From a bacterium (GTDB taxonomy: Bacteria; Patescibacteriota; Minisyncoccia; Phycocordibacterales; UBA9973), in NCBI GenBank assembly GCA_037130655.1, contig JBAXSP010000005.1, forward strand, positions 1-40,007: DNA of 40,007 nucleotides, given 5' to 3'. Position 1 is the first letter of the stretch; every line of letters starts with the position of its first letter. Positions 68-35,587 of the stretch are shown one piece after another. Position numbers and translations under genes: made by a program. Below the pieces are notes generated by a model that was not told where the DNA came from, made no database searches, and was given only the letters and a program-made list of their open reading frames with translations.

Positions 68-98
68 AAAGCGCGGCGACCAAAGGTCGCCGCGCTTT
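68..98 (-). terminator. Perfect 14-bp palindrome with 3-nt loop, likely intrinsic terminator of secY
   Basis: AAAGCGCGGCGACC-AAA-GGTCGCCGCGCTTT, 36 nt downstream of the secY stop. Confidence 0.8.
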
Positions 99-130
99 TA
101 CTAGTCATTGGTCATTGGACACTGGTCATT
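99..130. repeat. Degenerate heptamer repeats, inverted relative to 1-61
   Basis: TAC TAGTCAT TGGTCAT TGGACAC TGGTCAT T between the hairpin and the secY stop. Confidence 0.85.
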
Positions 131-134
131 ACTT

Positions 135-1406
135 TTAGTATTCCCGAAGTGAAAGCTGTGCTTCAATTCGTTTTACCAAATCGATAACCACAGATACCGC
201 AATCAAGAGTGATGTACCTCCAACAGTCAGTGATGTGATTCCTGTAGCACTTTTGAGTACCAACGGAATAACCGCAATGAGCCCCAAGAAGAGTGCACCA
301 AAGAGTGTTAGACGAACAATGATATATGAAAGATATTTCATTGTTGCTTCACCTGGACGAATTCCTGGAATAAATGCTCCACTCTTTTGGAGATTTTGAG
401 ACATTTGTTCTGGATCAAACGTAACTGCTGTGTAGAAGTATGTAAATAATACTACAAAGATAAAGTATACGAGTGGGTATGCCCAAGCTGAAGTGACAAA
501 CCAAGACATTGCGTGTGCAAGACTTGCAAGTACGCTGTGTGTTGAGTTAGCAAATACATTTGCAATCAACTGCGGAAAAAGCAAAATTGAAAGTGCAAAA
601 ATGATTGGCATAACTCCTGCTTGGTTCAAACGAACTGGAATGTATGTTGATGTTCCACCGATTACTCGATTACCGTGCACTTGTCGTGCATAGGTTACCG
701 GAATCTGTCGTTCTGCATCGTTCACAAATACCACGAATGCAATGATCAATGCCCCAAGTGCAGCAAAAAGCAAGAATACTGGTAATTGAGAAATGTCGAA
801 TGAATAGATTGCTTGTGCGATGTGTGTTGGTAATTGCGCTACGATACCAGCAAAGATAAGGAGTGATACTCCGTTTCCAATACCGAATTCAGAAAGCAAT
901 TCTCCAATCCACATAAGGAGAACAGAACCTGCAACAATAACTGCTAAGTTAAGTGCAAATCCAAATGTTGATAGTTCAACAATAATTCCTTGTTTCTTCA
1001 AAAGCAACAAGAATCCAAATCCTTGCAATAGTGCCATTGGTACAGTCAAAATTCTTCCGTATTGAGCAAATTTTTGACGCCCTGCATCACCGTTGTCTTG
1101 ATACGCAGATTTAATGCGAGGAGACAAGATAGTCAACAACTGCATGATGATTGAAGCCGTAATGTACGGACTCACCCCAAGCATAATGATTGAAAGATTT
1201 GATAGTCCTCCACCTGAGAGCACATTCAATATTCCAAAGAATTGGTTGTTGGCAAGAAATTGTTGCAAACGAGTCACATCTACTCCAGGAACTGGAATAG
1301 CTGCGAGTAAACGGAACAACACAAGAAAACCTACTATAGCCAAAATTCTATTACGAAGGTTTCGGTCAGTTACTAGCAGTTTAATTTTCTTTAATAGTGT
1401 ATTCAT
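135..1406 (-). CDS. secY: Preprotein translocase subunit SecY
   Basis: LGVSPYITASIIMQLL, GIGNGVSLLIFAGI and GAFIPGIRPG motifs; about 10 hydrophobic helices; follows rplO. Confidence 0.99.
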   Translation of the reverse strand: MNTLLKKIKLLVTDRNLRNRILAIVGFLVLFRLLAAIPVPGVDVTRLQQFLANNQFFGILNVLSGGGLSNLSIIMLGVSPYITASIIMQLLTILSPRIKSAYQDNGDAGRQKFAQYGRILTVPMALLQGFGFLLLLKKQGIIVELSTFGFALNLAVIVAGSVLLMWIGELLSEFGIGNGVSLLIFAGIVAQLPTHIAQAIYSFDISQLPVFLLFAALGALIIAFVVFVNDAERQIPVTYARQVHGNRVIGGTSTYIPVRLNQAGVMPIIFALSILLFPQLIANVFANSTHSVLASLAHAMSWFVTSAWAYPLVYFIFVVLFTYFYTAVTFDPEQMSQNLQKSGAFIPGIRPGEATMKYLSYIIVRLTLFGALFLGLIAVIPLVLKSATGITSLTVGGTSLLIAVSVVIDLVKRIEAQLSLREY

Positions 1407-1417
1407 AAATTTAGTTG

Positions 1418-1494
1418 AAAGTTCTTAAAGTTATAAAGTTCTTAAAGTTATACTGTTTTGCATTTACTTTACAACTTTGTACTTTATGAACTTT
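1418..1494. repeat. AAAGTT/AACTTT short repeats in two inverted arms, including an exact 17-bp tandem duplication
   Basis: AAAGTTCTTAAAGTTAT at 1418-1434 and 1435-1451; ACTTT units at 1466, 1474, 1481 and 1490. Confidence 0.8.
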
Positions 1495-1938
1495 TTACTT
1501 AATAATACCGCCAGCTTGTTCTATTTTTGCCTTAGCTGAATCACTTACGAAACAGTCAGATGAAATAGAGAGCTTTTTTGTAAGTTCACCAGTAGCCAAA
1601 ATTTTGACTTGAGGAAGAACACCTTGTGTTCGTTTAATCAAACCATTTTTCAAAAGCAATGCTCTTGTAATAAATGTTCCTGCTTCAAATACTTTGTCCA
1701 AAGTTCCAACGTTTACAACTTTGAAATCTTCTTTGACTGATTTGTTACTGTTTTTTCCACGTCCACGAAGTTTTGGAAGTTTCTTGATGATATCGCGCAT
1801 TTGTGGACGCTTTTTGTTACCAGCACGAGCTGTTTGTCCTTTGCCTCCACGTCCAGATGTTTTACCGCTTGAACCTCCACGTCCAATCAATTTCTTTTTC
1901 TTGTTTGGTGTTTTTTTAACGAGTGTATGTAGTTGCAT
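1495..1938 (-). CDS. rplO: 50S ribosomal protein L15
   Basis: IGRGGSSGKTSGRGGKGQTAR motif; AKAKIEQAGG C-terminus. Confidence 0.98.
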   Translation of the reverse strand: MQLHTLVKKTPNKKKKLIGRGGSSGKTSGRGGKGQTARAGNKKRPQMRDIIKKLPKLRGRGKNSNKSVKEDFKVVNVGTLDKVFEAGTFITRALLLKNGLIKRTQGVLPQVKILATGELTKKLSISSDCFVSDSAKAKIEQAGGIIK

Positions 1939-1939
1939 A

Positions 1940-2560
1940 TTATTGTTGTGTTGCTACTTTTTCTTCTTGTGCGACCACAGGAGCTGCATGTACTTTTTTG
2001 ACTGCGATTTGAGAAAGCGCAGAAATAGTTGCACGAGCATTGTTCATTTTGTTCTTACTACCAGAGTTAATCTTTGCAGTAACGTTCTTGATACCAGCCA
2101 AGATCAAAATATCACGCATAGCAGAACCTGCTACGAGACCTTTTGATTTGTTTGGCATCATCATTACTTGTGCACTGTTGTATTTTGCAGACACATCGTG
2201 ATGGATTGAACCTTCTTTGTTCAATTTGACGGTAATCATATTTTTGCGAGCAGCTTTCAATGCTTTTGCGATTGCAAGCGCAGTGTCAGCACCCTTTCCT
2301 GTTCCCATTCCAACAGAGCCCTTGTGGTCTCCGATTGCAATAGCAACTGCGAAACTCATACGACGTCCTCCTGAAACCACACGAGTAACGCGACGAATAG
2401 AAATCATCTTTTGATCGAACTCAGGTTTTGGTCGTTCTGCATAAGTTTTTCCTCCTGGACCTCCTGGTCTTCCGCCTTTTCTATGTGGACGAGCCCCACC
2501 AGCCCCAGTCCCAGTTCCTGTCATTGTATTATTATTGGGTTTTGTATTTGTGAAAGCCAT
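1940..2560 (-). CDS. rpsE: 30S ribosomal protein S5 with Gly/Pro-rich N-terminal extension
   Basis: IRRVTRVVSGGRRMSF and GLVAGSAMR motifs. Confidence 0.98.
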   Translation of the reverse strand: MAFTNTKPNNNTMTGTGTGAGGARPHRKGGRPGGPGGKTYAERPKPEFDQKMISIRRVTRVVSGGRRMSFAVAIAIGDHKGSVGMGTGKGADTALAIAKALKAARKNMITVKLNKEGSIHHDVSAKYNSAQVMMMPNKSKGLVAGSAMRDILILAGIKNVTAKINSGSKNKMNNARATISALSQIAVKKVHAAPVVAQEEKVATQQ

Positions 2561-2564
2561 AAAA

Positions 2565-2915
2565 TTAAAACTTAAGTCCTGCTTCGCGGGCAGAATCTGC
2601 TACTAATTTGACACGACCAGTATACTTGAAACCATTACGGTCAAAAACAACTGCAGTAATCTTTTTTGCTAGTGCAACTTCGGCAATTTTCTTACCGACA
2701 ACAACTGCGCGTTCTGCTTTTGTACCTTTTGTTTCTTTGATGTCTGATGCTTCACCAATTGTGACACCTTTTGTATCATCAATCAATTGAGCGTACATAT
2801 GGACATTTGAACGGAATACAGAGAGACGTGGAATACTAGCTGTGCCAGAAACACGACTTCTAATCTTGCCTTTCAAACGAATTCTTTTTTCAGTTTTCTT
2901 TTGTTGTGTATTCAT
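2565..2915 (-). CDS. rplR: 50S ribosomal protein L18
   Basis: [24 protein letters not shown] and AREAGLKF motifs. Confidence 0.98.
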
Positions 2916-2918
2916 ATA

Positions 2919-3452
2919 CTATGCAGATTTCTTACCAGCTTTGCGACGAATAACTTCCCCATCATAACGGAATCCTTTTCCTTTATATGGTTCTGGCTTT
3001 TTCAATGCGCGAACTTTTGCTGTAAATTGTCCGACCAATTCTTTATCAATACCTGATACGGTAATGTTATTTTTTTCAGCAGTCACCGTCAATCCTTCAG
3101 AGATTGGAACGATAACTGGATGAGAAAATCCAAGTGCTAATTTGAGATCTGAACCAGCTACTTCACTTTTGAAACCAACTCCTTCAAGAATGAGTTTCTT
3201 TGAAAATGGAGTAACTACTCCTTCAATCATATTTTCTAAATGAGATGCGTAAGTACCCCAAAGAGATCGGGCGAATTTGTCAGTCTTTCTTGGTGTGAAA
3301 GTGAGTGCATTATCTTCGATCGCAATAGTAACCACATCAATGACAGGACGAGTAATTGTTCCTTTTGGACCAGTTACTGTCACCATACCGTAGTCGAGTT
3401 TAACCTCAACACCAGCAGGAATTTGTATAATTTTTTTACCAACTCTTGACAT
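2919..3452 (-). CDS. rplF: 50S ribosomal protein L6 (start trimmed to MSRVGKK)
   Basis: MSRVGKK, LGFSHP and PEPYKGKG motifs; ATG at 3452. Confidence 0.98.
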   Translation of the reverse strand: MSRVGKKIIQIPAGVEVKLDYGMVTVTGPKGTITRPVIDVVTIAIEDNALTFTPRKTDKFARSLWGTYASHLENMIEGVVTPFSKKLILEGVGFKSEVAGSDLKLALGFSHPVIVPISEGLTVTAEKNNITVSGIDKELVGQFTAKVRALKKPEPYKGKGFRYDGEVIRRKAGKKSA

Positions 3453-3462
3453 ATATATTTGA

Positions 3463-3849
3463 TTACCAGATTTCGAATAATACTTCACCTCCGACCTGTT
3501 CTTTTTTCGCTTCCTTGTCAGTCAAAATACCTTTTGGAGTAGAAAATACTGTTACTCCGAAGCCATTCTTCACTGATTTGATATCGCGAATACCAGCGTA
3601 CATACGACGTGATTGTTTTGAAATACGTTTTACGTCACTGATTTTTGATTTTCCATCTACGTATCGAAGTGTAATTTCGATCATCGGACGGTCACGCTTC
3701 ACGAGAGCTTTTACATCCTCGATGAAATTTGCGCGCTTCAAACACTCTAAAATAGCGAGTTTGATTTTTGAATGAGGAACGACAACAGTTTCTTTAGAAA
3801 CCATTGCTCCGTTCTTCATTGATATGAGCATGTTTGATATTGGGTCCAT
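3463..3849 (-). CDS. rpsH: 30S ribosomal protein S8
   Basis: DPISNML, RISKQSRRMY, STPKGILT and GGEVL motifs. Confidence 0.98.
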   Translation of the reverse strand: MDPISNMLISMKNGAMVSKETVVVPHSKIKLAILECLKRANFIEDVKALVKRDRPMIEITLRYVDGKSKISDVKRISKQSRRMYAGIRDIKSVKNGFGVTVFSTPKGILTDKEAKKEQVGGEVLFEIW

Positions 3850-3875
3850 AATAATTTGATGTTATTAGAAAAGAA

Positions 3876-4061
3876 TTACCAAGAAGACTTACGTACTCCT
3901 GGAATCATTCCGTCGTTTGCTAACTCACGGAAACAGATTCGACAAAGTCCGAAATCACGCATAAATGCGTTTCCACGACCACACTTAAAACAACGATTCT
4001 TTGCACGAACCGGAAATTTTGGTTTCTTTTCTGCACGGGCTTTTGTTGATGTTTTTGCCAT
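3876..4061 (-). CDS. rpsN: 30S ribosomal protein S14, short zinc-binding type
   Basis: 61 aa with CFKC and CRIC pairs; IPGVRKSSW end. Confidence 0.98.
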
Positions 4062-4263: not shown

Positions 4264-6678
4264 TTAGCATATTTTAACAGCGGGACAAACATCTTCTGGA
4301 GTACTGGTTTTGATTGAATTTTGATTTTTTAAAGCAATAATCTTATCCATCGTTTTTGGGCCAACAATACCAGTAGCTGGAATATTATATTTTTTCTGGA
4401 ATTTGATTACTGAAGCCTTGGTAACTGATCCGTAAAAATCTGTCACCTTTATCTCTTTCGGGAAAAACCCCTGTGTGACAAGAAATCTTTGTAATTCTAA
4501 AACATCACTTCCCTTTTTTCCTGTAGCAAAATATACGACTTTTTTAGAAAAAACAGGATTCGTTACAGTTGATATATTTTGAATAATCGTTGGAGTAACG
4601 GGCTGTGTAACAATATCCCGAGGTGTAACCACTGTAATTGATGGCATTGAAGGAATAAATCCTCCTCTACGACTATTTACGATCATCTGCGTAGCAGAAA
4701 CAACAGAAGATGGAGTCCCTTGTCCCCCATTATTAACTGGTATTACACGAAAATCGTATAGATTACCATTAATCAAACCAGTAATCTGTGCAGTTGTCAC
4801 AGCACTAACACTGTCAGCAAAAGTATTCCAGCTTGTTGTTCCATTTTCACGATACTGAATAACATAATCAGAAATTGCACTTGTACCAATATCAGTCGGA
4901 GCTGTCCAAGTGAGCGTCATTGCATTGTTTTCAGACGTCACAGAAAAACTTGTTGGAGCAAGTGCGGTTGTTCGAGTAAAAGAAATTTCTGTTGAACGCG
5001 GAGTAAAGTTTGGTGAATATGTATCTGTGTCACTCTCTTGTACCACTGTATAATAAGTCGTTCCAGCAACGAAGTTTGATGTATTCATTGTGGCACTTGT
5101 ACTTGTTGCAGTATATGTTCCACTACTTGTTCCGTATGAAATCTTGTAGGCAGCCAAAGAACTTTCAAGTGTAGCTCTCGAAGTCCAACTAAAATTCATT
5201 TGACCGAGTGACTCACTCACAGAAAAATTTGCTGGTGTCATCATATTGATTGCATACAATCGTGCCATCTGAGCAAAACCTGCAGTATTTGGATGTACAT
5301 CCTGACTAGTCGCAGCTAAATCAATATAATGATACCCATCGTTGTAATGATTTTTGAAAAATGTCCAAAAGTCAGGACCCGCAGAAACACCGGTGTTTGA
5401 AATTACTGTCGTATAGTATGGTTGATACGGTTCGAGCAAATTATGAAAAGCACTATCAATAGAATAGTTTGGATACGCAAGCCAGATATTTGCCGCACTG
5501 ATACCGTATCGTGTTTTCAATTCGGTGTTAATAATTGTTGTCAAATTTGTTTGGAGTGATGAAGCAGTAAGATTATTATATGCATCATTCACCCCAAGAT
5601 TAACCAATGCTTTATTTGGAGCAAGTGCGGTTACTCTTGTGCGATACCCTGCTCCACTCATCATACTGACATATCCAGCAGATGTAATACCCGCTTTTCC
5701 GTCATTCATAATAAAAACTGGATATCCATAATACGAAACAAGGGTGTTTTGTAATTTTGTGAGAAACCCTTCTTTCCATCTACCAGAAAAAGCGCCGTGT
5801 TGTGGGAACTGACGATTGTCATTTGAAACAGTTCCGGCTGGTGCTGTTGTCCAATTGGCAATTGGTGTTGAACCAAGATCAGTATCATAATACCCTTCGG
5901 TGATTGAATCACCGACACCTAAAATAATATCTCCGATACCAAGATTTGTTGCTTGATCATGATTACCTGCACTTGTTTGAACAACCTGACTCGAGTCGAC
6001 GATATATACATCGATCGTATATTCTGCTTTCGCAAGTGACGTAAATGAAGCAGTAAACGGTGAAGACATATCGTATACTGTTTGTTCTGTTGATAATCCC
6101 TTATTTAAAACAAACTTCACTCCACCACTTGATGGAAGCCCCGCACTTGCAACTGTTGCGGTAATAGACAATGTTGTGCTTGTTTGAATATACGGAATAT
6201 AAAATGGCGCTATATAGTCATCAGTAATAGCACGAGTTGCAACATACGGCGCACCAACAACACCTTTCATAGGGCTAGTAATAAAAATATATCCAGCTTT
6301 GACTGGTATAACATTTGAAATTGCTGCGGTTCCTTGGCTGTTAACAGCCATGACAGAAAAATCATATACAGTATCAGTAGTAAGGCCGGTCACCGTCGCA
6401 CTTGCTGTTGTGCTGACACCATCAGTAAATGTTGTCCATGAAGTATCTCCATTTAAACGATATTGAATCGTATAATCAGTAATACTTGCTCCGCCATTTG
6501 AAGGTGCTGTCCAAGTAAGTGTCACCGACGTTGCATCAGCACTCCCCGCAAGGGTTGTAATCGCAGAAGGAACAGAAACAGCTGAAGAACTGTGTGGAAA
6601 ACAAAGAAAACACAGAAAGAAAAATATACCGTACAGTATATTTTTCTTTCTGTGTGATTTTGTAGTATTTCTATTCAT
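4264..6678 (-). CDS. Secreted FN3 + SGNH/GDSL hydrolase + FN3 + peptidoglycan-binding protein
   Basis: Signal peptide; FN3 motifs (LTWTAP...YDFSVMAVN); SGNH blocks GDSIT, NDGKAG, NLGVND, DVHP; C-terminal GSDVLELQRFL...GIVGPKT PG-binding pattern. Confidence 0.85.
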   Translation of the reverse strand: MNRNTTKSHRKKNILYGIFFFLCFLCFPHSSSAVSVPSAITTLAGSADATSVTLTWTAPSNGGASITDYTIQYRLNGDTSWTTFTDGVSTTASATVTGLTTDTVYDFSVMAVNSQGTAAISNVIPVKAGYIFITSPMKGVVGAPYVATRAITDDYIAPFYIPYIQTSTTLSITATVASAGLPSSGGVKFVLNKGLSTEQTVYDMSSPFTASFTSLAKAEYTIDVYIVDSSQVVQTSAGNHDQATNLGIGDIILGVGDSITEGYYDTDLGSTPIANWTTAPAGTVSNDNRQFPQHGAFSGRWKEGFLTKLQNTLVSYYGYPVFIMNDGKAGITSAGYVSMMSGAGYRTRVTALAPNKALVNLGVNDAYNNLTASSLQTNLTTIINTELKTRYGISAANIWLAYPNYSIDSAFHNLLEPYQPYYTTVISNTGVSAGPDFWTFFKNHYNDGYHYIDLAATSQDVHPNTAGFAQMARLYAINMMTPANFSVSESLGQMNFSWTSRATLESSLAAYKISYGTSSGTYTATSTSATMNTSNFVAGTTYYTVVQESDTDTYSPNFTPRSTEISFTRTTALAPTSFSVTSENNAMTLTWTAPTDIGTSAISDYVIQYRENGTTSWNTFADSVSAVTTAQITGLINGNLYDFRVIPVNNGGQGTPSSVVSATQMIVNSRRGGFIPSMPSITVVTPRDIVTQPVTPTIIQNISTVTNPVFSKKVVYFATGKKGSDVLELQRFLVTQGFFPKEIKVTDFYGSVTKASVIKFQKKYNIPATGIVGPKTMDKIIALKNQNSIKTSTPEDVCPAVKIC

Positions 6679-9920: not shown

Positions 9921-9957
9921 CATCAAAAAATCCACATTACTGCGGATTTTTTTGATG
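9921..9957 (-). terminator. Terminator hairpin after rplE
   Basis: Minus strand CATCAAAAAAATCCGCA-GTAA-TGTGGATTTTTTGATG (GNRA loop). Confidence 0.75.
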
Positions 9958-12986: not shown

Positions 12987-13334
12987 TTATTTCTTCTTAG
13001 CGTCAGTAGAAGCTCCTTTCGCAGCTTTTGCAGCAGAAATTTCAGCTTCTTTCTTCTTCTGATCAAGTTCTTTTTGCATTTTACCTCCGTGGCGAGTAAA
13101 TTTCTTTGTTGGAGAAAATTCACCAAGTCTGTGTCCGACCATATCTTCAGTAACCAATACTTCGATGTGCTGGCGTCCGTTGTGAACACCAAAAACAAAC
13201 CCTACCATTTCAGGAGAGATTTGAGACGCACGTCTCCAAGTTTTAATAACCCCAGTTTCAATGGGTTTCTTCCCTTCTATCTTTGATAGAAGCTTTGCGT
13301 CAACATATGGACCTTTTTTGAGCGATCGTGTCAT
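12987..13334 (-). CDS. rpsS: 30S ribosomal protein S19 (start trimmed to MTRSLKKGP), with Lys/Ala-rich C-terminal tail
   Basis: [16 protein letters not shown] and [12 protein letters not shown] motifs. Confidence 0.98.
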
Positions 13335-13540
13335 TTTGTTTGTTGTTTCAGGAAAAGAGAATAAAGACAAATGCCTCATTTATGTATGAATACATAACAC
13401 CGTTCTGTATTGTAGCCCTAAATTGGACTAACTAACGGGATCGAGGGAAAAGCTTAAGCTTGACCTTAGAAAATTTAATTAAAAATTGCTCTTAATTGAG
13501 CATTCCTTGAATACCTATACGGTTGTTCAAAGTCTCTGAC

Positions 13541-13569
13541 ATCTTAGCAGAATGATACCGATGAGTCAA
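13541..13569 (-). promoter_or_regulatory. Strong sigma70 promoter for rpsS-rplE
   Basis: Minus strand TTGACT-17 bp-TAAGAT with TG extended -10. Confidence 0.75.
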
Positions 13570-13580: not shown

Positions 13581-13611
13581 AAAGGGGCGAAACCTCCGGT
13601 TTCGCCCCTTT
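13581..13611 (-). terminator. Perfect 14-bp triloop palindrome downstream of mutY
   Basis: AAAGGGGCGAAACC-TCC-GGTTTCGCCCCTTT; heptamers TAATTCN follow at about 13622-13650. Confidence 0.75.
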
Positions 13612-13635
13612 TTGACCATTTTAAATTCGTAATTC

Positions 13636-14427
13636 CTAATTCTTAATTTTAACGATTCCTTCTTTTACGAGCAATTCCAAGGCTTTTTTGTAGTCATTTT
13701 TGACTACTTTTTCCTGTAAACGGATCAATTTTTGGACATTTTTATATCCCCCGCTCGCATACGCTTTGACCAGTTGACCCCGGATCTGACGGAATGAACC
13801 TTCGAACTTGGATTGTTTCTGATAGGTCGTACTTTTGCGATGAGTTTTGATTCCCTGCCCTTTCAAATAAGTGCCGTAATCCATCATCGCCGAATAGAAT
13901 TTTCGGGGATTTTTGGTATCAACGATTTCCTTCAAAATAGTTTCGATTTCACTATCAGCTACATTTTCTTTGTTTTGTAAAAAATGATGAATGATGACCG
14001 TACGAACATTTGTTTCAATCACCAGCTCTGATTGATTGTATGCAAACACACAAATCGCACGGGCGGTGTATGGACCGATACCAGGCAAAGATATCAAGGA
14101 GTCACGACTTTTTGGAAAGATACCTTTGTAGGTTTTCTGTATTTCAATGCAGGCGCGCTGTGCAAACAGTGCGCGACGATTGTAGCCAAGTCCTTGCCAG
14201 TACTGCAAAATAGTTTGAGTGTTCGCACGAGCAAGCACTTTGGCCGTCGGAAACTTTTTCAAAAATGCTTCGTATTTCGGCACAACTCGTGGAGCTTGGG
14301 TTTGTTGGAGCATCAATTCGGAAATGAAAATACTGTACGGATCAGTCGTCTGTCGCCACGGCAAACTATGCCGGCCATTCTTTTTGTACCAATCGTACAG
14401 CATTTTTCTGAATTCCTTCCCTTCCAT
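13636..14427 (-). CDS. mutY: A/G-specific adenine glycosylase, HhH-GPD family, short form without Fe-S cluster
   Basis: WY...R.LPWR, SELMLQQTQ, WQGLGYNRRA and SLPGIGPYTA motifs; no CX6CX2CX5C; no C-terminal NUDIX-like domain. Confidence 0.88.
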   Translation of the reverse strand: MEGKEFRKMLYDWYKKNGRHSLPWRQTTDPYSIFISELMLQQTQAPRVVPKYEAFLKKFPTAKVLARANTQTILQYWQGLGYNRRALFAQRACIEIQKTYKGIFPKSRDSLISLPGIGPYTARAICVFAYNQSELVIETNVRTVIIHHFLQNKENVADSEIETILKEIVDTKNPRKFYSAMMDYGTYLKGQGIKTHRKSTTYQKQSKFEGSFRQIRGQLVKAYASGGYKNVQKLIRLQEKVVKNDYKKALELLVKEGIVKIKN

Positions 14428-14457
14428 ATCCGGACATTATACACAAAGACAAAATAA

Positions 14458-14488
14458 AAAGGGCAAACGACTTTGTCGTTTGCCCTTT
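14458..14488 (-). terminator. Perfect 14-bp triloop palindrome downstream of the helicase gene
   Basis: AAAGGGCAAACGAC-TTT-GTCGTTTGCCCTTT. Confidence 0.75.
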
Positions 14489-14529
14489 AGTGATCACTAA
14501 AGTTTTTAGTCTTTAGTTTGAGATTAACA

Positions 14530-16941
14530 TTACTTTTTACCAAAATGTTCTTTAATTTTTTGAACTAAATCTGGATGATAGTGTTCACGTAAACAACCTT
14601 TTACATAAAACTCGTTAAAGAATTCTATAGGAAATTCTGATTTACGTTTTTTGACAAAATTTATAATAGCATCAACACTAGCAATTTTCATTTGTTTCAG
14701 GCCAGTTGCCGTAAACCATCCGCTAGGAGCCAAAGATTTACCACCTAAATCTTTTCTAATTAGAGCAACTAAATCCGGGTGTAAAAACTCAGCAGGAGCA
14801 GTCATTGTGCGATAATTTACAAACCATTCAGGATGTTTTTCTCTATATTTACTAATATACCTTTTTATTGTTGCATCACTAGATATCTTTTCTTCAACAT
14901 ACAACTTATTTACAGTGGTCCAACCATCAGGAGGAAAATCTAGCGACTTAAAATTATCTACTATAATTTTAGCTAAATCTGGATGATAATATTCTCCAGT
15001 ACCAATTTTCCTGTATAATTCCTTGTGTTTTAAGATTTGAACATTAGCAAATGCTTTGATAGTATGACGAGAAACACCTTTTAACTTACTTTCTATAGCA
15101 CCAAAACTAATCCATCCATCCAAAATTTTATAATTTTTAGAAAATTCTACTATACGAAGACATAATTGAGGGTGAAAGTGTTCTGATGGTTTTCCATTTC
15201 CTTGTGGATGATAAATCCCAAACCATTCAGAATGATCCTTACGAAACTTTTCTACAAACTTATAAATTGTCTCACGTGCAAGTTTATTCTCCTCTGCTAA
15301 GAAAGAAGCATTTTTGTAACCTTCTGGAGGCAGACCGTAAACTAGAAATTTTTCCCTCAAAAGCTTAAGAAGTTTTGGATGGTAACATTTGGTAATTTTT
15401 ATACCTGTCGAATTCCAATAATTTTTAACCCAATCGGGCTGTTTTTTCTGAATTTCATTTACAAATTTCTCTACTAATTCTGGAGATGCTCGTAATTTTT
15501 TGTAGGTTTGTGAATGAGTTTGCCAACCTTTGGGTAATACTTCTTTTTTCAAAAATTTTAACCATCCAGGAAAATCAGAATAATAAGCACCTGGATTAAA
15601 AGGGAGTTTACGGTTTACTTGTTTGTGTCTTTTTTGATAATCTGCAACATCTACAATACCAGCATTTATACTGACTTCACTGGCTTCTTGCCATGTGTCA
15701 TAAAATTCATTACTAGAAACCATATACTCAAGAACAGACAAAACATTCACAATTTCAGAGCTAAAATCAAAACTAAAACCTTTTCCATCAACATGAAGTG
15801 GTGTGCCGAGAATTAATTGTTCATTTTGACTCATACCAACTGGATTAAATTCTTCAATTTCAGTAATCAATTTTTGAACATTCTTGACTCTTTCGATGTT
15901 TGCAACAAAATCAAGTACCGTTACTTTGAATTTACCTGCAACTTTACTCAATGCCCTACCAAGTTGTTGTAACCATATCCGATATGAATCAGTTGATCGC
16001 AAAAATGCGAGCACCTCAACATTTGGAACATGAATTCCTTCATTGAACTTGTCTACAACAAGCACATGACTTGCATCACCGTTCTCAAACGCATCCATAG
16101 CGTCTTCATTTTCTTTTGACGACTGTTCTGAGTGCAACCAAACACTGTTTGGAAGAATTTCTGCAAGATGACGAAGATGAGTAATATTACGACAGAAAAC
16201 TATCGCTTTTTCACCTCCACTCGTATGCTGTAAGATTTCCAAACATTGCTTTTCACTTCTTTTTTGAATAAAGATGCGTTCGTTAATCTGTTTTTCACTA
16301 ATTCGAGCTTTTTCAACAAATACTTCCTGACAAATTAACTCAAGTTCATCTTGATCAAGTCCATCAGTAACTATTTTGTATTCAAGCGGTGTAAGCCAGC
16401 CTTTTGCAAGAGCTTCTGGCAGTGAGTAGTTTACAACTTCTTTTCCGAACATATGACGAATATCTCTTTCGTCTTCGCGGTCAGGAGTTGCAGTCATTCC
16501 TAGTTTCCAGATTGGTTTGAAAAAATTTAAAACAATTTCATAGGTATCTGCTTTTGCATGATGACCTTCATCAACGATAATATAATCGAAATGTTTTGCC
16601 TTAAAAAATTCATGAGGTTTTGATTGAAAGGTAGCAAACACAAACGTGTGTTCGTCTGCATTCCAATTTTTATTCTCTCCAAAGAAACGTGCGTACGTAT
16701 ACTTGTCTCCTAGAAGCTCCTCATATTTCTTGAGAGAACGTTCTAATATACCAGTATCGTGACACAGAAATAAGATTCGTGCTTTGGGCTTTTTAGACAA
16801 AAAGTATTCAACTATTTTAGCTGATACGATTGTCTTACCAAGTCCTGTAGCCATAACCATCAAGGCTTTGGCTGTTTCAAGCAGTGCAGAAAGCACCTTT
16901 TTGTAGGCAATTTTCTGGTAATCGTATAGTTTTATATTCAT
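14530..16941 (-). CDS. SF2 DExH helicase (ResIII/SSL2-like) with C-terminal repeat domains
   Basis: ATGLGKT (I), DEGHH (II), TAT (III), FNEGIHVP (V) and QQLGR (VI); repeats from aa 413 to 803. Confidence 0.9.
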   Translation of the reverse strand: MNIKLYDYQKIAYKKVLSALLETAKALMVMATGLGKTIVSAKIVEYFLSKKPKARILFLCHDTGILERSLKKYEELLGDKYTYARFFGENKNWNADEHTFVFATFQSKPHEFFKAKHFDYIIVDEGHHAKADTYEIVLNFFKPIWKLGMTATPDREDERDIRHMFGKEVVNYSLPEALAKGWLTPLEYKIVTDGLDQDELELICQEVFVEKARISEKQINERIFIQKRSEKQCLEILQHTSGGEKAIVFCRNITHLRHLAEILPNSVWLHSEQSSKENEDAMDAFENGDASHVLVVDKFNEGIHVPNVEVLAFLRSTDSYRIWLQQLGRALSKVAGKFKVTVLDFVANIERVKNVQKLITEIEEFNPVGMSQNEQLILGTPLHVDGKGFSFDFSSEIVNVLSVLEYMVSSNEFYDTWQEASEVSINAGIVDVADYQKRHKQVNRKLPFNPGAYYSDFPGWLKFLKKEVLPKGWQTHSQTYKKLRASPELVEKFVNEIQKKQPDWVKNYWNSTGIKITKCYHPKLLKLLREKFLVYGLPPEGYKNASFLAEENKLARETIYKFVEKFRKDHSEWFGIYHPQGNGKPSEHFHPQLCLRIVEFSKNYKILDGWISFGAIESKLKGVSRHTIKAFANVQILKHKELYRKIGTGEYYHPDLAKIIVDNFKSLDFPPDGWTTVNKLYVEEKISSDATIKRYISKYREKHPEWFVNYRTMTAPAEFLHPDLVALIRKDLGGKSLAPSGWFTATGLKQMKIASVDAIINFVKKRKSEFPIEFFNEFYVKGCLREHYHPDLVQKIKEHFGKK

Positions 16942-17041: not shown

Positions 17042-17084
17042 AAAACAAAAGAGCGACGGGCAAAGCCCGTCGCTCTTTTGTTTT
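17042..17084 (-). terminator. Perfect 20-bp triloop palindrome downstream of rplB
   Basis: AAAACAAAAGAGCGACGGGC-AAA-GCCCGTCGCTCTTTTGTTTT. Confidence 0.8.
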
Positions 17085-17089
17085 GTCCT

Positions 17090-17124
17090 GCTAGTTGCTA
17101 GACGCTAGTAGCTAGGTGCTAAAT
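17090..17124. repeat. Five degenerate heptamers GCTAGNN abutting the rplB stop codon
   Basis: GCTAGTT GCTAGAC GCTAGTA GCTAGGT GCTAAAT. Confidence 0.9.
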
Positions 17125-17964
17125 CTATCTCTTCTTACCTGTCTTGCGACGAGTAACAATAAGATGATTTGAGTATTTCTTCGGAGTACGAGTCTTTCGT
17201 CCACCAGTTACTTTACCCCATTTAGTCTTCGGTCGGCGTGTTCCACGTCCTTGTGCACCTTCACCTCCACCATATGGGTGGTCTACTGGGTTCATGGCAG
17301 ATCCACGAACAGTTGGGCGAATACCCTTCCATCGTGATGCACCTGCTTTACCGTAGTTACGAAGTTTGTTTTCTGAGTTTCCGACTTCACCAATTGAAGC
17401 GTAACACTTTTCATGCACTTTTCGGATTTCTCCTGAAGGCATTTTCAAACTAGTGTATCCTTCGTCATTCGCAATGACTTGGATAAAGGTTCCAGCACTT
17501 CGGCCAAGTTTCGCACCACCACCTTGTTTCAATTCCACATTGTATACGAATGTACCAACGGCAATGTTTTTGAGTGGTAGACGGTTTCCCGGTGTCAGTG
17601 GAGCTGTGTCAGATACGATGAATGTATCACCTACCTTCATTCCTTTTGGAGTAAGCACATAGCGCTTTTCTCCATCAGCGTAGACTGCGATTGAAATGAA
17701 AGAAGTTCGGTTTGGATCGTATTCAACAGAAGCAATTTTCGCTGGAATGTTGAACTTGTTGTACAAGAAATCAATCATTCGGTAACGACGTTTATTTCCT
17801 CCTCCTTTGTGGCGAGTAGTAATACGTCCAGCATTGTTGCGCCCCATATCACGCTTTCCTCCCTTTGTTAAACTTTTGAGTGGTGTACCAGTCGTTAGTA
17901 TTTCACGATAGTTAATCGTTTGCATATTACGACGTGATGGTGTTGTTGGTTTATATGTTTTCAT
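17125..17964 (-). CDS. rplB: 50S ribosomal protein L2
   Basis: GRNNAGRITTRHKGGG, EYDPNRT and RGSAMNPVDHPYGGGEG motifs. Confidence 0.99.
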   Translation of the reverse strand: MKTYKPTTPSRRNMQTINYREILTTGTPLKSLTKGGKRDMGRNNAGRITTRHKGGGNKRRYRMIDFLYNKFNIPAKIASVEYDPNRTSFISIAVYADGEKRYVLTPKGMKVGDTFIVSDTAPLTPGNRLPLKNIAVGTFVYNVELKQGGGAKLGRSAGTFIQVIANDEGYTSLKMPSGEIRKVHEKCYASIGEVGNSENKLRNYGKAGASRWKGIRPTVRGSAMNPVDHPYGGGEGAQGRGTRRPKTKWGKVTGGRKTRTPKKYSNHLIVTRRKTGKKR

Positions 17965-19773: not shown

Positions 19774-19801
19774 GTGATTTTTTGCCTCGGCAAAAAATCA
19801 C
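19774..19801. other. Perfect hairpin just after rpsJ, without a downstream U-tract
   Basis: GTGATTTTTTGCC-TC-GGCAAAAAATCAC. Confidence 0.7.
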
Positions 19802-22425: not shown

Positions 22426-22470
22426 CGTCGAAAAAACTTTATTGACTTCGCCGACAAGTTTCTTTCGACG
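22426..22470. repeat. Imperfect palindrome (REP-like)
   Basis: CGTCGAAA/TTTCGACG and AAACTT/AAGTTT arms around TTGACTTCGCCGA. Confidence 0.55.
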
Positions 22471-22494
22471 TCATTTTTCTTTGTAGAAAAAATG

Positions 22495-22520
22495 AAATCC
22501 CCTCTTTGCAAAGGGGATTT
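22495..22520 (-). terminator. Terminator of plsC
   Basis: AAATCCCCT...AGGGGATTT stem; T-run downstream on the minus strand. Confidence 0.75.
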
Positions 22521-26182: not shown

Positions 26183-26237
26183 TTTATTAAGTTTTAATTC
26201 CTCCACCACTTTACTCTTTTGATACAATTTGTCAAAA
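26180..26237 (-). repeat. Duplicated promoter/leader, copy 1
   Basis: 24 bp identical to 26864-26887 (CATTTTATTAAGTTTTAATTCCTC); TTGACA-16 bp-TAAAGT. Confidence 0.85.
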
Positions 26238-26248
26238 AAAATCCCTCA

Positions 26249-26866
26249 TCAGTGAGGGATTTTTGAATATAATACGCTTTGTTCTTTAAAATGTTCTTTT
26301 TGAAAATTGTTCATTTTTTCTAAAGCATACATAAAACGACAAGGTGTTTCTCTTAAACCGTTTGTTACTTCCAAAATCTCATTTGCAATTTGATTCGCAG
26401 CTCCCTCTTCTGTTAACAAAAGAGGTTCGATAAAATCATCTAGTGTGTCGGATTTTTGTCCATAAGGAAAAAGAATTGTGTTAGCACTTTCTGTATATAC
26501 AAGAAATCTTTGTTCGTCTTTTAGGTTGTCAAAAGTAACACTATAGTATTGACCTTCTGTTAGTTCAATATCAAGCAATGTAATTGGTTGAAAATCTTTT
26601 GTACTAACAAGTTTTAATCCTGAAAACGCACACTGTTTATTCAAAAGAACAAATTCTTTTGCATTTGTTTTTTCACTAAACAGAAATTCATCTCTTCCGG
26701 CAGAAACACGCTCTTTTTTACTTACACTGCGTTTCAATTCTCCAGTACACTTTTGACCGATAACAGGCACTGATTCAAGAATAAGAAATAATTCTTTATC
26801 TTTTGAAACCTCTAGCTCAAGGCCTCCTATTAACATAAAGATATGTTCGATTTTTATTTTTTTCAT
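26249..26866 (-). CDS. Hypothetical protein (205 aa from MKKIKIEH)
   Basis: Start set by the duplicated leader; its terminator hairpin AAAAATCCCTCA/TGAGGGATTTTT overlaps the stop. Confidence 0.7.
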   Translation of the reverse strand: MKKIKIEHIFMLIGGLELEVSKDKELFLILESVPVIGQKCTGELKRSVSKKERVSAGRDEFLFSEKTNAKEFVLLNKQCAFSGLKLVSTKDFQPITLLDIELTEGQYYSVTFDNLKDEQRFLVYTESANTILFPYGQKSDTLDDFIEPLLLTEEGAANQIANEILEVTNGLRETPCRFMYALEKMNNFQKEHFKEQSVLYSKIPH

Positions 26867-32124: not shown

Positions 32125-32148
32125 AAAAATCCCTTTGGGGATTTTTTT
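32123..32148. terminator. Bidirectional terminator between the IMPase gene and glyQS
   Basis: AAAAAAATCCC-TTTG-GGGATTTTTTT. Confidence 0.8.
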
Positions 32149-32152
32149 TATT

Positions 32153-33469
32153 TTATGCTTCAAGCGAATCTCGCAAGAATTGCTCAACTTCATCTTTGTG
32201 CATTCGGACCTGTGTTCCAGAATCGCGGTCACGGACTGTAATGGTTCCATCTTCCAATGTATCAAAGTCTACAACAATACAATATGGTGTTCCGATTTCA
32301 TCTTGTCTTCGGTACCGCTTTCCAATATTTCCATTGTCATCCCAAGCGATTGTTCCAAAAGCTTGTTTGAGTGTTGCATAGATTGCATTGGCTTCGTGGA
32401 CGAGTTCTTCTTTGTTTTTCAACAGCGGTGATACACACGCAAGGTTCGGGGCAATACTTGGTTTGAATTTCAAGAAACTTCTCACTTCCCCATCATTCTC
32501 AACTTCAGTATATGCAGAAGTCAAAAGCGCAAGTACGGTACGATCAAGACCAAATGATGGTTCGATAACGTGCGGAATGAATCGTTCTTTGGTCTCTTCA
32601 TCAAAATATTCGAGTGATGCCCCACTTACTTCTTGATGTACACCCAAATCATAACTTCCGCGATATGCGAGTCCGTACAATTCTTTTCTTCCAAACGGAA
32701 AATCAAATTCGAAATCAACGGTGCGTTTTGAGTAGTGAGCCAAATCTGCTCCTTCGACTTCGAGTTCATGCACACGAGCACTATCGATACCAATACTATT
32801 CATCCATTCAACCATTTCATCTTTCCAATAATTGAATTCTGCTTCCCACAGTTCTGGTCGAATAAAATATTCGATTTCCATTTGTTCAAATTCTCGAACA
32901 CGGAAAATAAAATCGCGCGGAGTAATTTCATTACGAAAAGCTTTTCCGATTTGTGCCATACCAAATGGCAATTTTGGATGCATTGAATCCATAATGTTTT
33001 TGAAGTTCACAAACATTCCTTGTGCTGTTTCTGGACGCAAATACGCAATCGCAGAAGAATCTTCAACGGCACCGATTTTTGTTTGAAACATCATGTTGAA
33101 CTGTCGCTCTTCACCAAATGCCCCACCACATTCTGGACAAGCATTTCTGTCTTCTAATTGATCAGCACGAAAACGGCGTTTACATTTTGTACATTCTACA
33201 AGTGGATCAGAGAATCCACCGACATGCCCTGATGTTTCCCAGACTTTGCCGTTCATCAAAATGGCTGCGTCCACCTCGAACATATCTTTGCGAGTTTTCA
33301 CAAATTTCTTTTTCCACGAGTTTTTGATGTTGTCTTTGAGAGCAACACCAAAATGACCATAATCAAATGCTCCTGCAAGTCCGCCATAAATATCAGAACC
33401 TGGGTAGATAAATCCTCGGCGCTTTGCCAAAGAAACGATTTTTTCCATCAATTGTGCGTCTTTTTCCAT
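32153..33469 (-). CDS. glyQS: Glycine--tRNA ligase, homodimeric (eukaryote/archaea-like) type
   Basis: LRPETAQGMF, FRNEITPR, REFEQMEIEYF, PHVIEPSFG and IGKRYRRQDEIGTP motifs. Confidence 0.97.
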   Translation of the reverse strand: MEKDAQLMEKIVSLAKRRGFIYPGSDIYGGLAGAFDYGHFGVALKDNIKNSWKKKFVKTRKDMFEVDAAILMNGKVWETSGHVGGFSDPLVECTKCKRRFRADQLEDRNACPECGGAFGEERQFNMMFQTKIGAVEDSSAIAYLRPETAQGMFVNFKNIMDSMHPKLPFGMAQIGKAFRNEITPRDFIFRVREFEQMEIEYFIRPELWEAEFNYWKDEMVEWMNSIGIDSARVHELEVEGADLAHYSKRTVDFEFDFPFGRKELYGLAYRGSYDLGVHQEVSGASLEYFDEETKERFIPHVIEPSFGLDRTVLALLTSAYTEVENDGEVRSFLKFKPSIAPNLACVSPLLKNKEELVHEANAIYATLKQAFGTIAWDDNGNIGKRYRRQDEIGTPYCIVVDFDTLEDGTITVRDRDSGTQVRMHKDEVEQFLRDSLEA

Positions 33470-33502
33470 ACACTTAATATATCAGATATTGAGATAATTC
33501 TA

Positions 33503-33551
33503 AAATAAGAAAAGCGGTCGGAGGCTTCGCCTCCGACCGCTTTTCTTATTT
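33503..33551 (-). terminator. Perfect 23-bp triloop palindrome
   Basis: AAATAAGAAAAGCGGTCGGAGGC-TTC-GCCTCCGACCGCTTTTCTTATTT. Confidence 0.8.
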
Positions 33552-33584
33552 ACTTTATAACTTTTAACTTTATAAACCTTATAA
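33552..33584. repeat. ACTTTATA-type short repeats between the hairpin and a stop codon
   Basis: ACTTTATA ACTTTTA ACTTTATAA ACCTTATA A. Confidence 0.75.
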
Positions 33585-35465
33585 CTATTTCGTCACCAGT
33601 CCATCCCCTGAACCCGCAACCTCAGAAGATTTATATCCTTTGAGTGTTGAACGGATATCATTTCCAGAGAAACTATCGGTCGCAGTAACGGTTGTTGAAT
33701 TCAAGAGAGCTACATCCTCTCCTACTTGATTGTTTGCTGGAATAATTTTGATTTTGAAACTTACTTTTCGGACCAGTCCTGCGCCAAGTTTTTTGACTGC
33801 ACCAACTTTCCAAATTACTTCTTTGTTCAAATCATTATATGAAATATCTTCATCGTTTTTATTGACCACATCCCCCCACTTGATACCCGTTGGTAATGTT
33901 GTTCGCACAATTGCATTTGATACCGGATCAGTTGAATTTGAAATTGACCAAGTCACTGTATAAGTTGTTTCTTTGCCCATTGCTGGCGGAATAACTCCTG
34001 TGTCATTGGTGCCATGTACAATATTTCCGTTTACAGAAAAATCACTACCGAACTTGATGGTCTTCTTGTCGATACTGGTTAATTCTTCATTTTGATACCC
34101 ATCACCTGTTTGCAATCCTTTACTATTTACGACGATTGAAATTTCAGGACTAACCGACGAACCAGACGAAGACATTGTTTTTGTGGTGAAGCTAAATGGC
34201 AATGCGCCACTTGCACCTGTTTCTATTTGTGAAAAAGCTGGATATGTATCACGATTCCATGTAATGGTATTTGTTCGTGCATCATAATATCCACCATCTA
34301 CTTGCAATGTCCCTTCATCAAACGCTTGGCCGATGATTGTTGTACTGATTTCAGCATTCGCAATGCTACTTGGTGAATTATTTGACCAAACAACAGTACC
34401 GTTGACAGTAGATCCACCAGAAACTACATAGGTATCTTTGTTTCCTCCAGTCATTTCAAAATGGGCATCAAGAAATGGTTTCTGCAAAGTGACAGCGTGT
34501 GGCAATGAATTGTATGTCACCCCAACAGTCGATTGATCATCTTGTTTTTGTTCTCCGGCATAAATACGAAATACTTTTTCTTCACCTTGTTCACCAGAGA
34601 GTGTTCCTGAAATACGAATTTCTTTTGAAACACCGGTTTTCATATCACCCAAATCAAAGACATTGTCCCCAAGCATTGGTTGTACGTTTGCATTTTCAAA
34701 TGAAAATCCTGGCGGATAATCAACACGAAGAATCATATTTTGCGCAATATTTTCACCATTTAAGACTGTCTTGATAGTGAAAGAATAATGCTGATTTGCA
34801 CTGGTTGTTGTTGGTCCGTCAACTGCAAGCGATAGCGGTGAAGCGGAAAGTGTCACTGAGTAGTCGATTGTCTTTGAAAAAATTGCGTTTGATCCAGGGA
34901 TTTTGTATTCGAGTGTCATTTTCATTTGTTTGACTGAACCTTGTTCACCATAGAGTACGACATCAAATGCATGATGTTTTGTTTCTCCTGCGCCGATAGT
35001 CCCAAAACTTTCTCGAATACGAACACGATCTTCGACTTGATTACTGGTGCTCCCTTTTGGATATTCTAAGATAAGGTCAGCGAGTTCAATTGCAGAATTA
35101 TTTCTATTGGTAGCCAATGCTTCAAGGGTCAGCTTGTTGCCACCCGGAGTGAATGCATTTCCCAAAATTTCTAGATCAATATTTTTGTTTGAAACCGTAT
35201 TTCCTCCACGAAATGTCATCACCGCAAAAAAACCCATAGCAATCAAAAAGAATACTATTGCGGTTATAAAAAATTTTTTAAAAAAAGAATTCTTTTTCAT
35301 CATACGTGTGCCTGTATCAAATGCAGGTTTGACTGCGTCCCAAGTTTTTGGAGCTTTGTGCATAATATCGTGAAGCACTGATTTCTTTGACTCAGTCAGA
35401 CTATCGGTATCACGATTCATGTAGAGTTTGCGTTTCAATTCTTCAAGACGATTTGATTCTTCCAT
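33585..35465 (-). CDS. Single-pass membrane protein with a large beta-rich extracellular region, function unknown
   Basis: One TM helix (FFITAIVFFLIAMGFFAVM) then Ig-like segments (YTVTWSISN, LPTGIKW). Confidence 0.8.
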   Translation of the reverse strand: MEESNRLEELKRKLYMNRDTDSLTESKKSVLHDIMHKAPKTWDAVKPAFDTGTRMMKKNSFFKKFFITAIVFFLIAMGFFAVMTFRGGNTVSNKNIDLEILGNAFTPGGNKLTLEALATNRNNSAIELADLILEYPKGSTSNQVEDRVRIRESFGTIGAGETKHHAFDVVLYGEQGSVKQMKMTLEYKIPGSNAIFSKTIDYSVTLSASPLSLAVDGPTTTSANQHYSFTIKTVLNGENIAQNMILRVDYPPGFSFENANVQPMLGDNVFDLGDMKTGVSKEIRISGTLSGEQGEEKVFRIYAGEQKQDDQSTVGVTYNSLPHAVTLQKPFLDAHFEMTGGNKDTYVVSGGSTVNGTVVWSNNSPSSIANAEISTTIIGQAFDEGTLQVDGGYYDARTNTITWNRDTYPAFSQIETGASGALPFSFTTKTMSSSGSSVSPEISIVVNSKGLQTGDGYQNEELTSIDKKTIKFGSDFSVNGNIVHGTNDTGVIPPAMGKETTYTVTWSISNSTDPVSNAIVRTTLPTGIKWGDVVNKNDEDISYNDLNKEVIWKVGAVKKLGAGLVRKVSFKIKIIPANNQVGEDVALLNSTTVTATDSFSGNDIRSTLKGYKSSEVAGSGDGLVTK

Positions 35466-35482
35466 ATAGAAAGTATATCAAA

Positions 35483-35587
35483 TAATGATCAATTACCAAT
35501 GACTGATGACCAATAAAAGTGCGCGAAGGCTTCGCCTTCGCGCACTTTTTCGAATACTAATCATTGATCATTAGACACTAGTCATTA
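35483..35587. repeat. Composite element: heptamer arm, 16-bp triloop palindrome (35515-35549), inverted heptamer arm
   Basis: TAATGAT CAATTAC CAATGAC TGATGAC | AAAAGTGCGCGAAGGC-TTC-GCCTTCGCGCACTTTT | TAATCAT TGATCAT TAGACAC TAGTCAT. Confidence 0.85.

Follow-up and report, generated by a model that had tools for sequence, protein, structure and literature searches.

Repeat-flanked triloop palindromes at gene ends in a Patescibacteria genome: a probable family of fast-evolving composite terminators

Two described repeat systems are close to the elements treated here: the short tandemly repeated repetitive (STRR) sequences of heterocystous cyanobacteria, heptanucleotide repeats that Mazel and colleagues reportedly described in 1990, and the small dispersed repeats (SDRs) of Nostoc, which Elhai and colleagues are said to have described in 2008 as conserved families of 21-27 nt nested in tandem heptamer repeats. 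We analysed a 40,007-nt stretch of Patescibacteria DNA (contig JBAXSP010000005.1; 'the window' is this whole stretch) in which six long, perfect palindromes with 3-nt loops each stand beside an array of heptamer-type repeats at the end of a gene. These modules sit where terminators sit, fold into very stable hairpins and turn over quickly between close strains. We put at about 0.6 the probability that they are a distinct, fast-evolving family of composite intrinsic terminators specific to a Paceibacteria lineage. In each module a stop-rich STRR-type heptamer array starts at a stop codon or shortly after it and is followed by a GC-rich perfect triloop palindrome and sometimes by an inverted array on the far side.

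Like STRR sequences, for which slippage has been proposed as the origin in the STRR literature, the window arrays are tandem 7-nt intergenic units, and the STRR unit TTGGTCA matches the units at the first and sixth sites (CAATGAC, or TTGGTCA on the other strand). Unlike STRR sequences, they are short (four to nine units), anchored on stop codons and paired with GC-rich triloop palindromes, and several unit types coexist. With the Nostoc SDRs the modules share the embedding of tiny elements in heptamer arrays or hairpins, present or absent between close relatives, and the palindromes always lie within or beside arrays; the embedded unit here, however, is a palindrome of 31-49 nt with variable sequence, and after the mutY gene array and palindrome arrive together. 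The TAACTGA direct repeats of marine Beggiatoaceae, cyanobacteria and Bacteroidetes (MacGregor 2015, PMC4679880) resemble the arrays in carrying two stop codons per heptamer, in two to six copies, between genes and in ribosomal protein operons; their stop codons restrict the forward orientation, and they are spread patchily across phyla (PMC4679880). Most of them directly precede start codons, and no hairpins are reported to accompany them, whereas the window arrays follow stop codons and adjoin palindromes.

An exhaustive search of the window for perfect hairpins (stem of at least 8 bp) gave six triloop palindromes and 23 others; this census, the single-copy check and the look for transposases described below all cover the 40-kb window. 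The six, which an earlier note had picked out from the sequence, are mismatch-free with a 3-nt loop closed by C-G, as it had described them, and lie at 68-98 (14-bp stem), 13581-13611 (14), 14458-14488 (14), 17042-17084 (20), 33503-33551 (23) and 35515-35549 (16), numbered here as sites 1 to 6. Their loops read AAA, TCC, TTT, AAA, TTC and TTC on the plus strand. Chance does not account for them: Markov shuffles of the window yielded about 0.03 triloop palindromes of at least 10 bp, against six of at least 13 bp in the real window. Repeats between the hairpin and the stop codon of the upstream minus-strand gene, also claimed earlier, are found at all six sites. With repetition scored as the highest count of lag-7 matches among 14 positions in the 45-nt flank on each side of a hairpin, the six sites reach 10-14 and the 23 other hairpins 8 or less (Fisher p = 2e-6), and a score of 10 has a background rate of 3.6% at random positions. 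Tandem head-to-tail 7-nt units in non-coding DNA, the hallmark of STRR sequences, are thus present at every palindrome at 10/14 or better, although site 5 has a period nearer 8 and site 3 is weak (10/14). Nine regions of the window reach at least 11/14 at lag 7, and six of these adjoin five of the palindromes (sites 1, 2, 4, 5 and 6). Tandem Repeats Finder (TRF) reports period 7 at 1-61, 104-130, 13624-13648 and 17089-17121, and sites 1 and 6 carry a second, inverted array beyond the hairpin. The rule that all triloop palindromes carry repeats holds for the six long ones and breaks at a seventh, a short C-TTT-G palindrome (8 bp, 13274-13292, inside the S19 gene) that has none. Its counterpart, that other hairpins lack repeats, is borne out by 0 of 23 reaching the threshold, but the list on which it was based was incomplete, and we add perfect hairpins at 6610-6655, 19774-19801 and 26237-26264, which are likewise repeat-free.

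There are two hairpin classes in this window. Predicted RNA folding energies run from -21 to -39 kcal/mol in the triloop class and from -3 to -17 kcal/mol, with one at -26, in ordinary hairpins, making the former about twice as stable as ordinary A/T-tract tetraloop terminators; the gap between stop codon and hairpin is 24-41 nt at the six triloop sites versus 4-18 nt at ordinary ones. The ordinary hairpins are short GC cores inside long A/T tracts, for the most part with tetraloops, and some contain wobble pairs or mismatches (for example the L5 and fn3 terminators of the window). Each triloop core is unrelated to the others, as had been stated, and single-copy in the window. C-G closure was considered as a class-specific feature and rejected, being the commonest closure among ordinary hairpins too. 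Intrinsic 'bidirectional' A-/U-tract terminators offer a close comparison, with a GC stem-loop after the stop codon, a 5' A-run, a 3' T-run and C-G closure; unlike them, the modules have unusually long, perfect stems with no G-U pair, 3-nt loops and the wider set-back just given, and their termination activity is our proposal.

Four congeneric strains were recovered by protein-cluster and exact-protein look-ups: A (GCA_964444515.1), B (SRR21915726), C (SRR35571891, also in runs X2 and X3) and D (ERZ3602258). Their shared genes are 80-92% identical to those of the window in DNA, and clustered proteins at least 90% identical. Comparison of orthologous spacers, which the earlier note had suggested as a check for presence and absence, shows modules gained, lost or swapped at several gene ends. 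At the mutY stop, five heptamers and the palindrome form a 64-66 nt indel that is present only in the window and absent in B, C and D; the former gene end (cgagcTAG...cttgac) seems preserved just 3' of the hairpin, and the relatives hold no empty array there, array and palindrome having been gained jointly. After recO, the entire module 6 is absent in A and B, where the spacer is 38 nt. The end of secY exists in four states: TAATGAC arrays with their own palindrome in the window; an ordinary, slightly imperfect and repeat-free terminator in A; CTAG-type arrays with a different C-TTT-G palindrome in B and D, to which D adds one mismatch and a 68-nt insert in the array; and, in C, TAGGCNC arrays flanking a palindrome of the family found after L2 in the window ('family I'), its loop split by a 75-nt double-hairpin element. 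The outer stem of palindrome 6 resembles the secY palindrome of B and D. Modules after the 626-aa gene and after map differ by strain, all being C-NNN-G triloops; at the former, A and B carry another module (AAAAGAAAGACAGCC-GAA, with TAGGCTC arrays). At the L2 end, A has an ordinary tetraloop terminator, and the window, B and C have the family I palindrome, whose inner stem reads GGC/GCC in the window and ACC/GGT in B and C, two fully compensated pairs that leave it perfect. Besides its place after secY in C, the family I core occurs on at least five contigs of freshwater run X7 with other heptamer flanks, including a variant that has lost one base symmetrically from each arm. Palindrome 3 is identical in C, and the helicase gene that it follows is missing together with module 3 in A and B. 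Modules that are inserted, absent, swapped or compensatorily changed in this way between strains are fast-turnover DNA modules in terminator position. Among hairpins of A-D not already in the window, all 6 long C-NNN-G triloop palindromes score at least 9 at lag 7 against 7 of 40 others (p = 2e-4), one of those seven being a mutated class member; the clear exception comes from strain B, where a full palindrome centred on AATT stands next to an array of TAG heptamers.

Stop codons abound in the arrays. All three reading frames are closed in 9 of 13, where shuffles lead one to expect about 3, and seven arrays show significant enrichment on their own. Read in gene sense, the loops at 11 independent sites are TTT (three), GAA (four), and GGA, AAA, AAG and GTA (one each). 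Ten of the 11 are homopurine or homopyrimidine (P ~1e-4 by simple arithmetic that gives each loop a chance of 1/3). At 10 of 11 sites the 5' arm, read in gene sense, is rich in purines (64-80%). GNA loops account for 3 of the 6 window sites and 6 of the 11 independent sites, all on the sense strand (6:0), the rest being TTT, AAA or AAG, with C:G closure in every case. The bias of GNA loops and purine-rich 5' arms to the sense strand points to an RNA-level or strand-specific role. It argues for a role in the transcript, but which strand is exposed as single-stranded DNA in co-directional replication could also lie behind it; the data fit both.

Modules stand after the stop codons of co-oriented genes and just ahead of the promoter-like box and start codon of the next gene, so that, as in intrinsic terminators, a stable GC-rich stem-loop lies just 3' of a stop codon; module 4 is followed by a strong promoter-like site, TTGACT-17-TATAAT. 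If they are terminators, the hairpin and its U-rich tail would end transcription, protect the 3' end of the transcript, or both, and the array would release ribosomes in any frame before the stem is reached. Release in every frame would, we propose, allow a module to land harmlessly in the last codons of a gene, as at mutY. The perfect symmetry, minimal loop and adjacent repeats may derive from template switching and slippage where the replication fork stalls at the hairpin, and/or from one dispersed module being copied into another, and a dedicated hairpin transposase would be unnecessary. Quasipalindrome template switching (Ripley 1982; Lovett laboratory, PMC7202029; PMC8604942) can perfect inverted repeats and invert their spacer in one event: spacer inversion and arm homogenisation are given there as known products at inverted repeats (PMC8604942, PMC7202029), and quasipalindromes are made perfect (PMC7202029). 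It is consistent with arms free of mismatches, with the pair changes at L2 and with a loop flip at the L5 terminator. That ordinary terminator has the same stem core (AAAATCCGCA) at L083:9134-9169, at L082:4639-4680 and, in the window, at 9925-9952. Its loop is GAAA in A, whereas B and C have the exact inverse, TTTC, and the window has GTAA and a wobble pair. GAAA and TTTC on one stem suggest spacer inversion by template switching, and DNA-level hairpin remodelling is visible in the ordinary class too.

Several observations weigh against this account. An intrinsic terminator is expected to have a U-tract of about 7-9 nt directly 3' of its stem. In the modules T-runs lie partly within the palindrome; past the stem, good runs follow at sites 3, 4 and 5, but those of sites 2 and 6 are poor, so that two of the six hairpins are followed by short U-tracts (TTTC at site 2, four T at site 6). 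A consensus terminator scan of half of the window flagged only site 3, although such a scan is ill-suited to palindromes that hold their own T-tract. In the RNA data, which comprise a same-sample metatranscriptome and bioreactor metatranscriptomes and yielded short contigs of relatives only, a relative's contigs cover L2 to EF-Tu in fragments, none of which reaches a module or supplies a mapped RNA 3' end. Strong terminators after L2, within the S10 ribosomal operon, are unexpected. Template switching is a mutational process and not an element, and it leaves the heptamers with their unit length of 7, the GC-rich cores and the homopurine or homopyrimidine loops unexplained. Lastly, the gene-side arms of modules 1 and 6 are identical at 29 of 33 nt and keep one order of variant units (TAATGAC-yAGTGTC-yAATGAy-CAATGAy-TAGTA), which looks like the copying of a ready-made arm and not like independent slippage. 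A recent simple fold-back copy was tried as the source of the two-sided arms and rejected because the variant unit yAGTGTC occurs only on the gene side.

An alternative that we think unlikely regards the modules as non-autonomous mobile elements, moved as folded single-stranded DNA by an HUH enzyme (RAYT, IS200/IS605) or another recombinase, with any terminator activity incidental. Its models are the repetitive extragenic palindromes (REPs) and their doublets (REPINs), the miniature inverted-repeat transposable elements (MITEs) and the SDRs. REP and REPIN sequences form conserved-tag families of many near-identical copies linked to REP-associated tyrosine transposases, RAYTs (PMC3116915; GTAG/CGTC tags, PMC3733652). 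The modules resemble them as short extragenic palindromes, often at gene ends and variable between strains, and REPs have been proposed to move as hairpins. The unit-like insertion at mutY, the presence and absence at recO, the occurrence of one palindrome family at different loci with different arrays, and the attraction of nested insertions to loops and arrays (the 75-nt element in a palindrome loop of C and an array of D, other inserts in arrays of B) all favour mobility of this kind, as does the exceptional stability in DNA of d(GNA) loops with C:G closure (PMC3201870). Unlike REPs and REPINs, however, the six cores differ by site and occur once each in the 40 kb, where a multi-copy family would be expected; their stems begin AAAG, AAAA or AAAT, with no GTAG/CGTC tag at the stem starts and no REPIN doublet; and a Pfam scan of 28 window proteins showed no transposase or RAYT (Y1 HUH) domain. 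MITEs, which have terminal inverted repeats, a target-site duplication and a conserved interior, do not fit either: neither the mutY nor the recO junction shows such a duplication, and the interior of the modules varies. The strong orientation bias relative to genes also argues against it. The earlier note had proposed that the class may be selected or generated at the level of single-stranded DNA or cruciforms, besides acting as terminators. A DNA-level dynamic entity is what the variants at mutY, recO, secY, the 626-aa gene, map and L2 show, and that part of the proposal is supported; the specific REP or IS200-IS605 HUH mechanism finds no support in the window. Its argument from GNA triloops is carried by 6 of the 11 loops and weakened by the other, TTT, AAA or AAG half and by the confinement of GNA to the sense strand.

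Decidedly improbable, in our judgement, is a second alternative in which an oligomeric protein that binds RNA or DNA, comparable to TRAP or HutP, docks on the arrays and tunes termination or read-through at the neighbouring hairpin, the two hairpin classes being regulated and constitutive terminators. A conserved UAG or UAA recurring exactly every 7 nt in arms of four to six units, the variant-unit order common to the module 1 and 6 arms, and similar arms with one variant unit in unrelated metagenome contigs speak for such a platform. Yet the units differ so widely by site (TAATGAC, TAGCNNC, TTAGGAA, TTATAAR) that a single reader cannot fit them all, arrays are lost or swapped between close strains that retain the gene, others lie in frame inside ileS, and no candidate protein was identified in the window. 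The last alternative, that there is no real class and ordinary terminators merely adjoin ordinary microsatellites by chance, could appeal to heptanucleotide simple sequence repeats, which reportedly outnumber every other class of long repeat in most prokaryotic genomes (Mrazek 2007, as cited in PMC4679880), and to the lack of loop preference in distant Paceibacteria, but is disfavoured, and to us scarcely credible, given the association in the window, its recurrence at independent sister-strain sites and the joint gain of array and palindrome, e.g. at mutY.

How far the link between repeats and triloops reaches was gauged in two wider samples. In 23 loci from more distant Paceibacteria, reached via L2 relatives at no more than 72% identity, heptamer arrays also precede terminator hairpins, and TAG or TAA often recurs in them every 7 nt; in these loci the hairpins are mostly tetraloops and no link between repeats and loop size was found (1 of 6 versus 18 of 158). 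A metagenome scan for inverted AATGACY arrays around a centre of 20-50 nt returned about 115 distinct elements. The majority have no perfect central hairpin, and in the 37 that have a perfect central stem the loops are mostly 7-12 nt, with one triloop, the arms often pairing directly. The triloop is a signature of the module family of this lineage, and heptamer arrays do not in general depend on it; the class exists but is local, and it represents a variant of bacterial heptamer repeats known for decades.

All of the modules are on the minus strand and are described here in gene sense, beginning with the contig end. The distal arm of module 1 (1-61) is (TAATGAC) x 8.7, the inverted complement of the gene-side arm (TRF score 122, 100% matches), and the contig, like the window, probably begins inside it. 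Palindrome 1 follows secY (68-98, AAAGCGCGGCGACC-TTT-GGTCGCCGCGCTTT, a 14-bp perfect stem with C-G closure), and the gene-side arm (99-137) runs from the secY stop as TAA-aag-TAATGAC-CAGTGTC-CAATGAC-CAATGAC-TAGTA, with five stop codons closing three frames. Module 2, after the HhH-GPD glycosylase gene mutY, comprises palindrome 2 (13581-13611, AAAGGGGCGAAACC-GGA-GGTTTCGCCCCTTT) and the array TTAAGAA TTAGGAA TTACGAA TTTAAAA TGGTCAA (13612-13652, lag-7 score 12/14), which overlaps and provides the mutY stop codon (13636-13638). Palindrome 3 follows the ResIII/SNF2 helicase gene (14458-14488, AAAGGGCAAACGAC-AAA-GTCGTTTGCCCTTT) and is joined to the helicase stop by a weak repeat tract of CTAAAGA / CTAAAAA type (14489-14532, 10/14) with five stop codons. 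Palindrome 4, the family I palindrome after ribosomal protein L2 (17042-17084, AAAACAAAAGAGCGACGGGC-TTT-GCCCGTCGCTCTTTTGTTTT), is preceded by an array with TAG every 7 nt from the L2 stop (17085-17127, TAGATT TAGCACC TAGCTAC TAGCGTC TAGCAAC TAGCAGG), in which five stop codons against 1.8 expected (P = 0.006) close three frames. Palindrome 5 (33503-33551) has a 23-bp stem and a gene-sense loop of GAA after the gene for a 626-aa DUF11-like protein, and its repeat tract of TTATAAR type (33552-33587; TRF 33552-33586, period 8) extends from the stop codon to the palindrome with all stops in frame 0. Module 6, after recO, consists of a gene-side arm (35550-35590) that reads TAA-TAATGAC-TAGTGTC-TAATGAT-CAATGAT-TAGTATTCGA from the recO stop and closes three frames with seven stop codons (P = 0.003), palindrome 6 (35515-35549, AAAAGTGCGCGAAGGC-GAA-GCCTTCGCGCACTTTT) and a distal arm, GTCATCA GTCATTG GTAATTG ATCATTA (35483-35514).

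Arrays occur without palindromes as well. An arms-only element of 88 nt in the L15-secY spacer (1407-1494, minus strand) consists of inverted 8-9-nt arrays, AAAGTTNNN and NNNAACTTT, detected by TRF, that pair together (predicted dG -22.9); having no central GC palindrome, it shows that an array does not need a triloop core to exist. The spacer of strains A and C is just 14 nt long here, and in runs X2 and X3 the tract is replaced by 29 other letters. Heptamer arrays of four units each, again without a GC palindrome, also lie in frame within ileS at 37697-37726 and 38162-38192. The unit of one of these two, TAGGCWC, is the same unit type as in intergenic arrays of strain C; ileS itself (37359-40007) encodes an isoleucyl-tRNA synthetase with an inserted histidine-phosphatase domain, 1154 aa long in relatives.

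The window has 38.6% G+C and nearly all of its genes on the minus strand, among them the S10/spc ribosomal protein cluster, secY, EF-Tu, EF-G and several aminoacyl-tRNA synthetases, and the ribosomal cluster is interrupted by extra genes for a mutY-like glycosylase, the ResIII helicase and NHL and fn3/GDSL proteins. Its L2 protein is at most 72% identical to those of species representatives, with all matches in Candidatus Paceibacterota / Patescibacteria assemblies, and its DNA was found identical in the Logan assembly of a freshwater metagenome run. The helicase cassette (14530-16941 plus flanks) is an indel in the S10 operon with its own promoter-like site and module 3; only the N-terminal half of the helicase can be aligned in strain C, and the cassette junctions lie at TTTGT microhomology. 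Entry by integron attC-style recombination within the palindromes was rejected, these junctions being outside the stems. In strain D the NHL and fn3 genes between L5 and S14 are also missing. After several modules a TATAAT-like box precedes the next ATG by only 6-10 nt (14428-14440, 35466-35480, L085:11850-11862), a spacing that suggests leaderless or very short-leader mRNAs. The added repeat-free hairpin at 6610-6655 is AT-rich, with a 20-bp perfect stem and a loop of 6, and falls within the first 25 codons of the fn3/GDSL gene; no counterpart was seen at the corresponding place in strain B.

Three further elements were noticed, and in Rfam nothing in the window matched a family at the gathering threshold. 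Upstream of the S19 gene, about 130 nt of non-coding DNA (13420-13552, minus strand) are 100% identical in the window, A, B and D, where the flanking genes differ by 8-14%; with a predicted consensus fold of -41 kcal/mol and no Rfam match, this element may be a ribosomal protein leader or a small RNA. The dispersed two-hairpin element of about 75 nt is found in the window at 36878-36947 (minus strand) and ~22428-22495, and at L084:18787, L086:11790, L087:7975 and L089:529. Its first hairpin is conserved (YGAWTTTTC-CYRCAAA-GAAAAWTCR), its second is long, with a variable apex showing compensatory changes and mostly C-NNN-G triloops; its sites include the inside of a triloop-palindrome loop (C) and of a heptamer array (D), and it too has no Rfam match. 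Strain B carries at L089:10616-10750 a 137-nt MITE-like insert with inverted ends of about 20 nt (TCCGGTAGTAG...CTCACTACCGGA) and ATGG on both sides, placed exactly on the start codon of the gene after recO.

Heptanucleotide repeats have, to our knowledge, gone for more than 30 years without a function or a source. Here they fall within a defined Patescibacteria module that combines stops in all frames, a very strong palindrome and the position of a terminator. The alleles gained, lost and swapped naturally between close strains make up a before-and-after set for the hypotheses of ribosome release and harmless insertion. For annotating the genomes of these ultra-small bacteria, the modules show where transcription units end and account for breaks between contigs; the window starts inside an array. 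A bolder extension, which we offer as speculation and think doubtful, is that the modules are 'portable gene ends': gene-less cassettes of all-frame stops and a very strong terminator, a mobile terminator of an undescribed kind, that would insert harmlessly into the last codons or 3' untranslated region of any gene. They would spread and replace one another by insertion targeted to hairpin loops or arrays, or by self-templated copying. If true, this would give the old puzzle of heptamer repeats a functional explanation and ultra-small bacteria a new mobile terminator.

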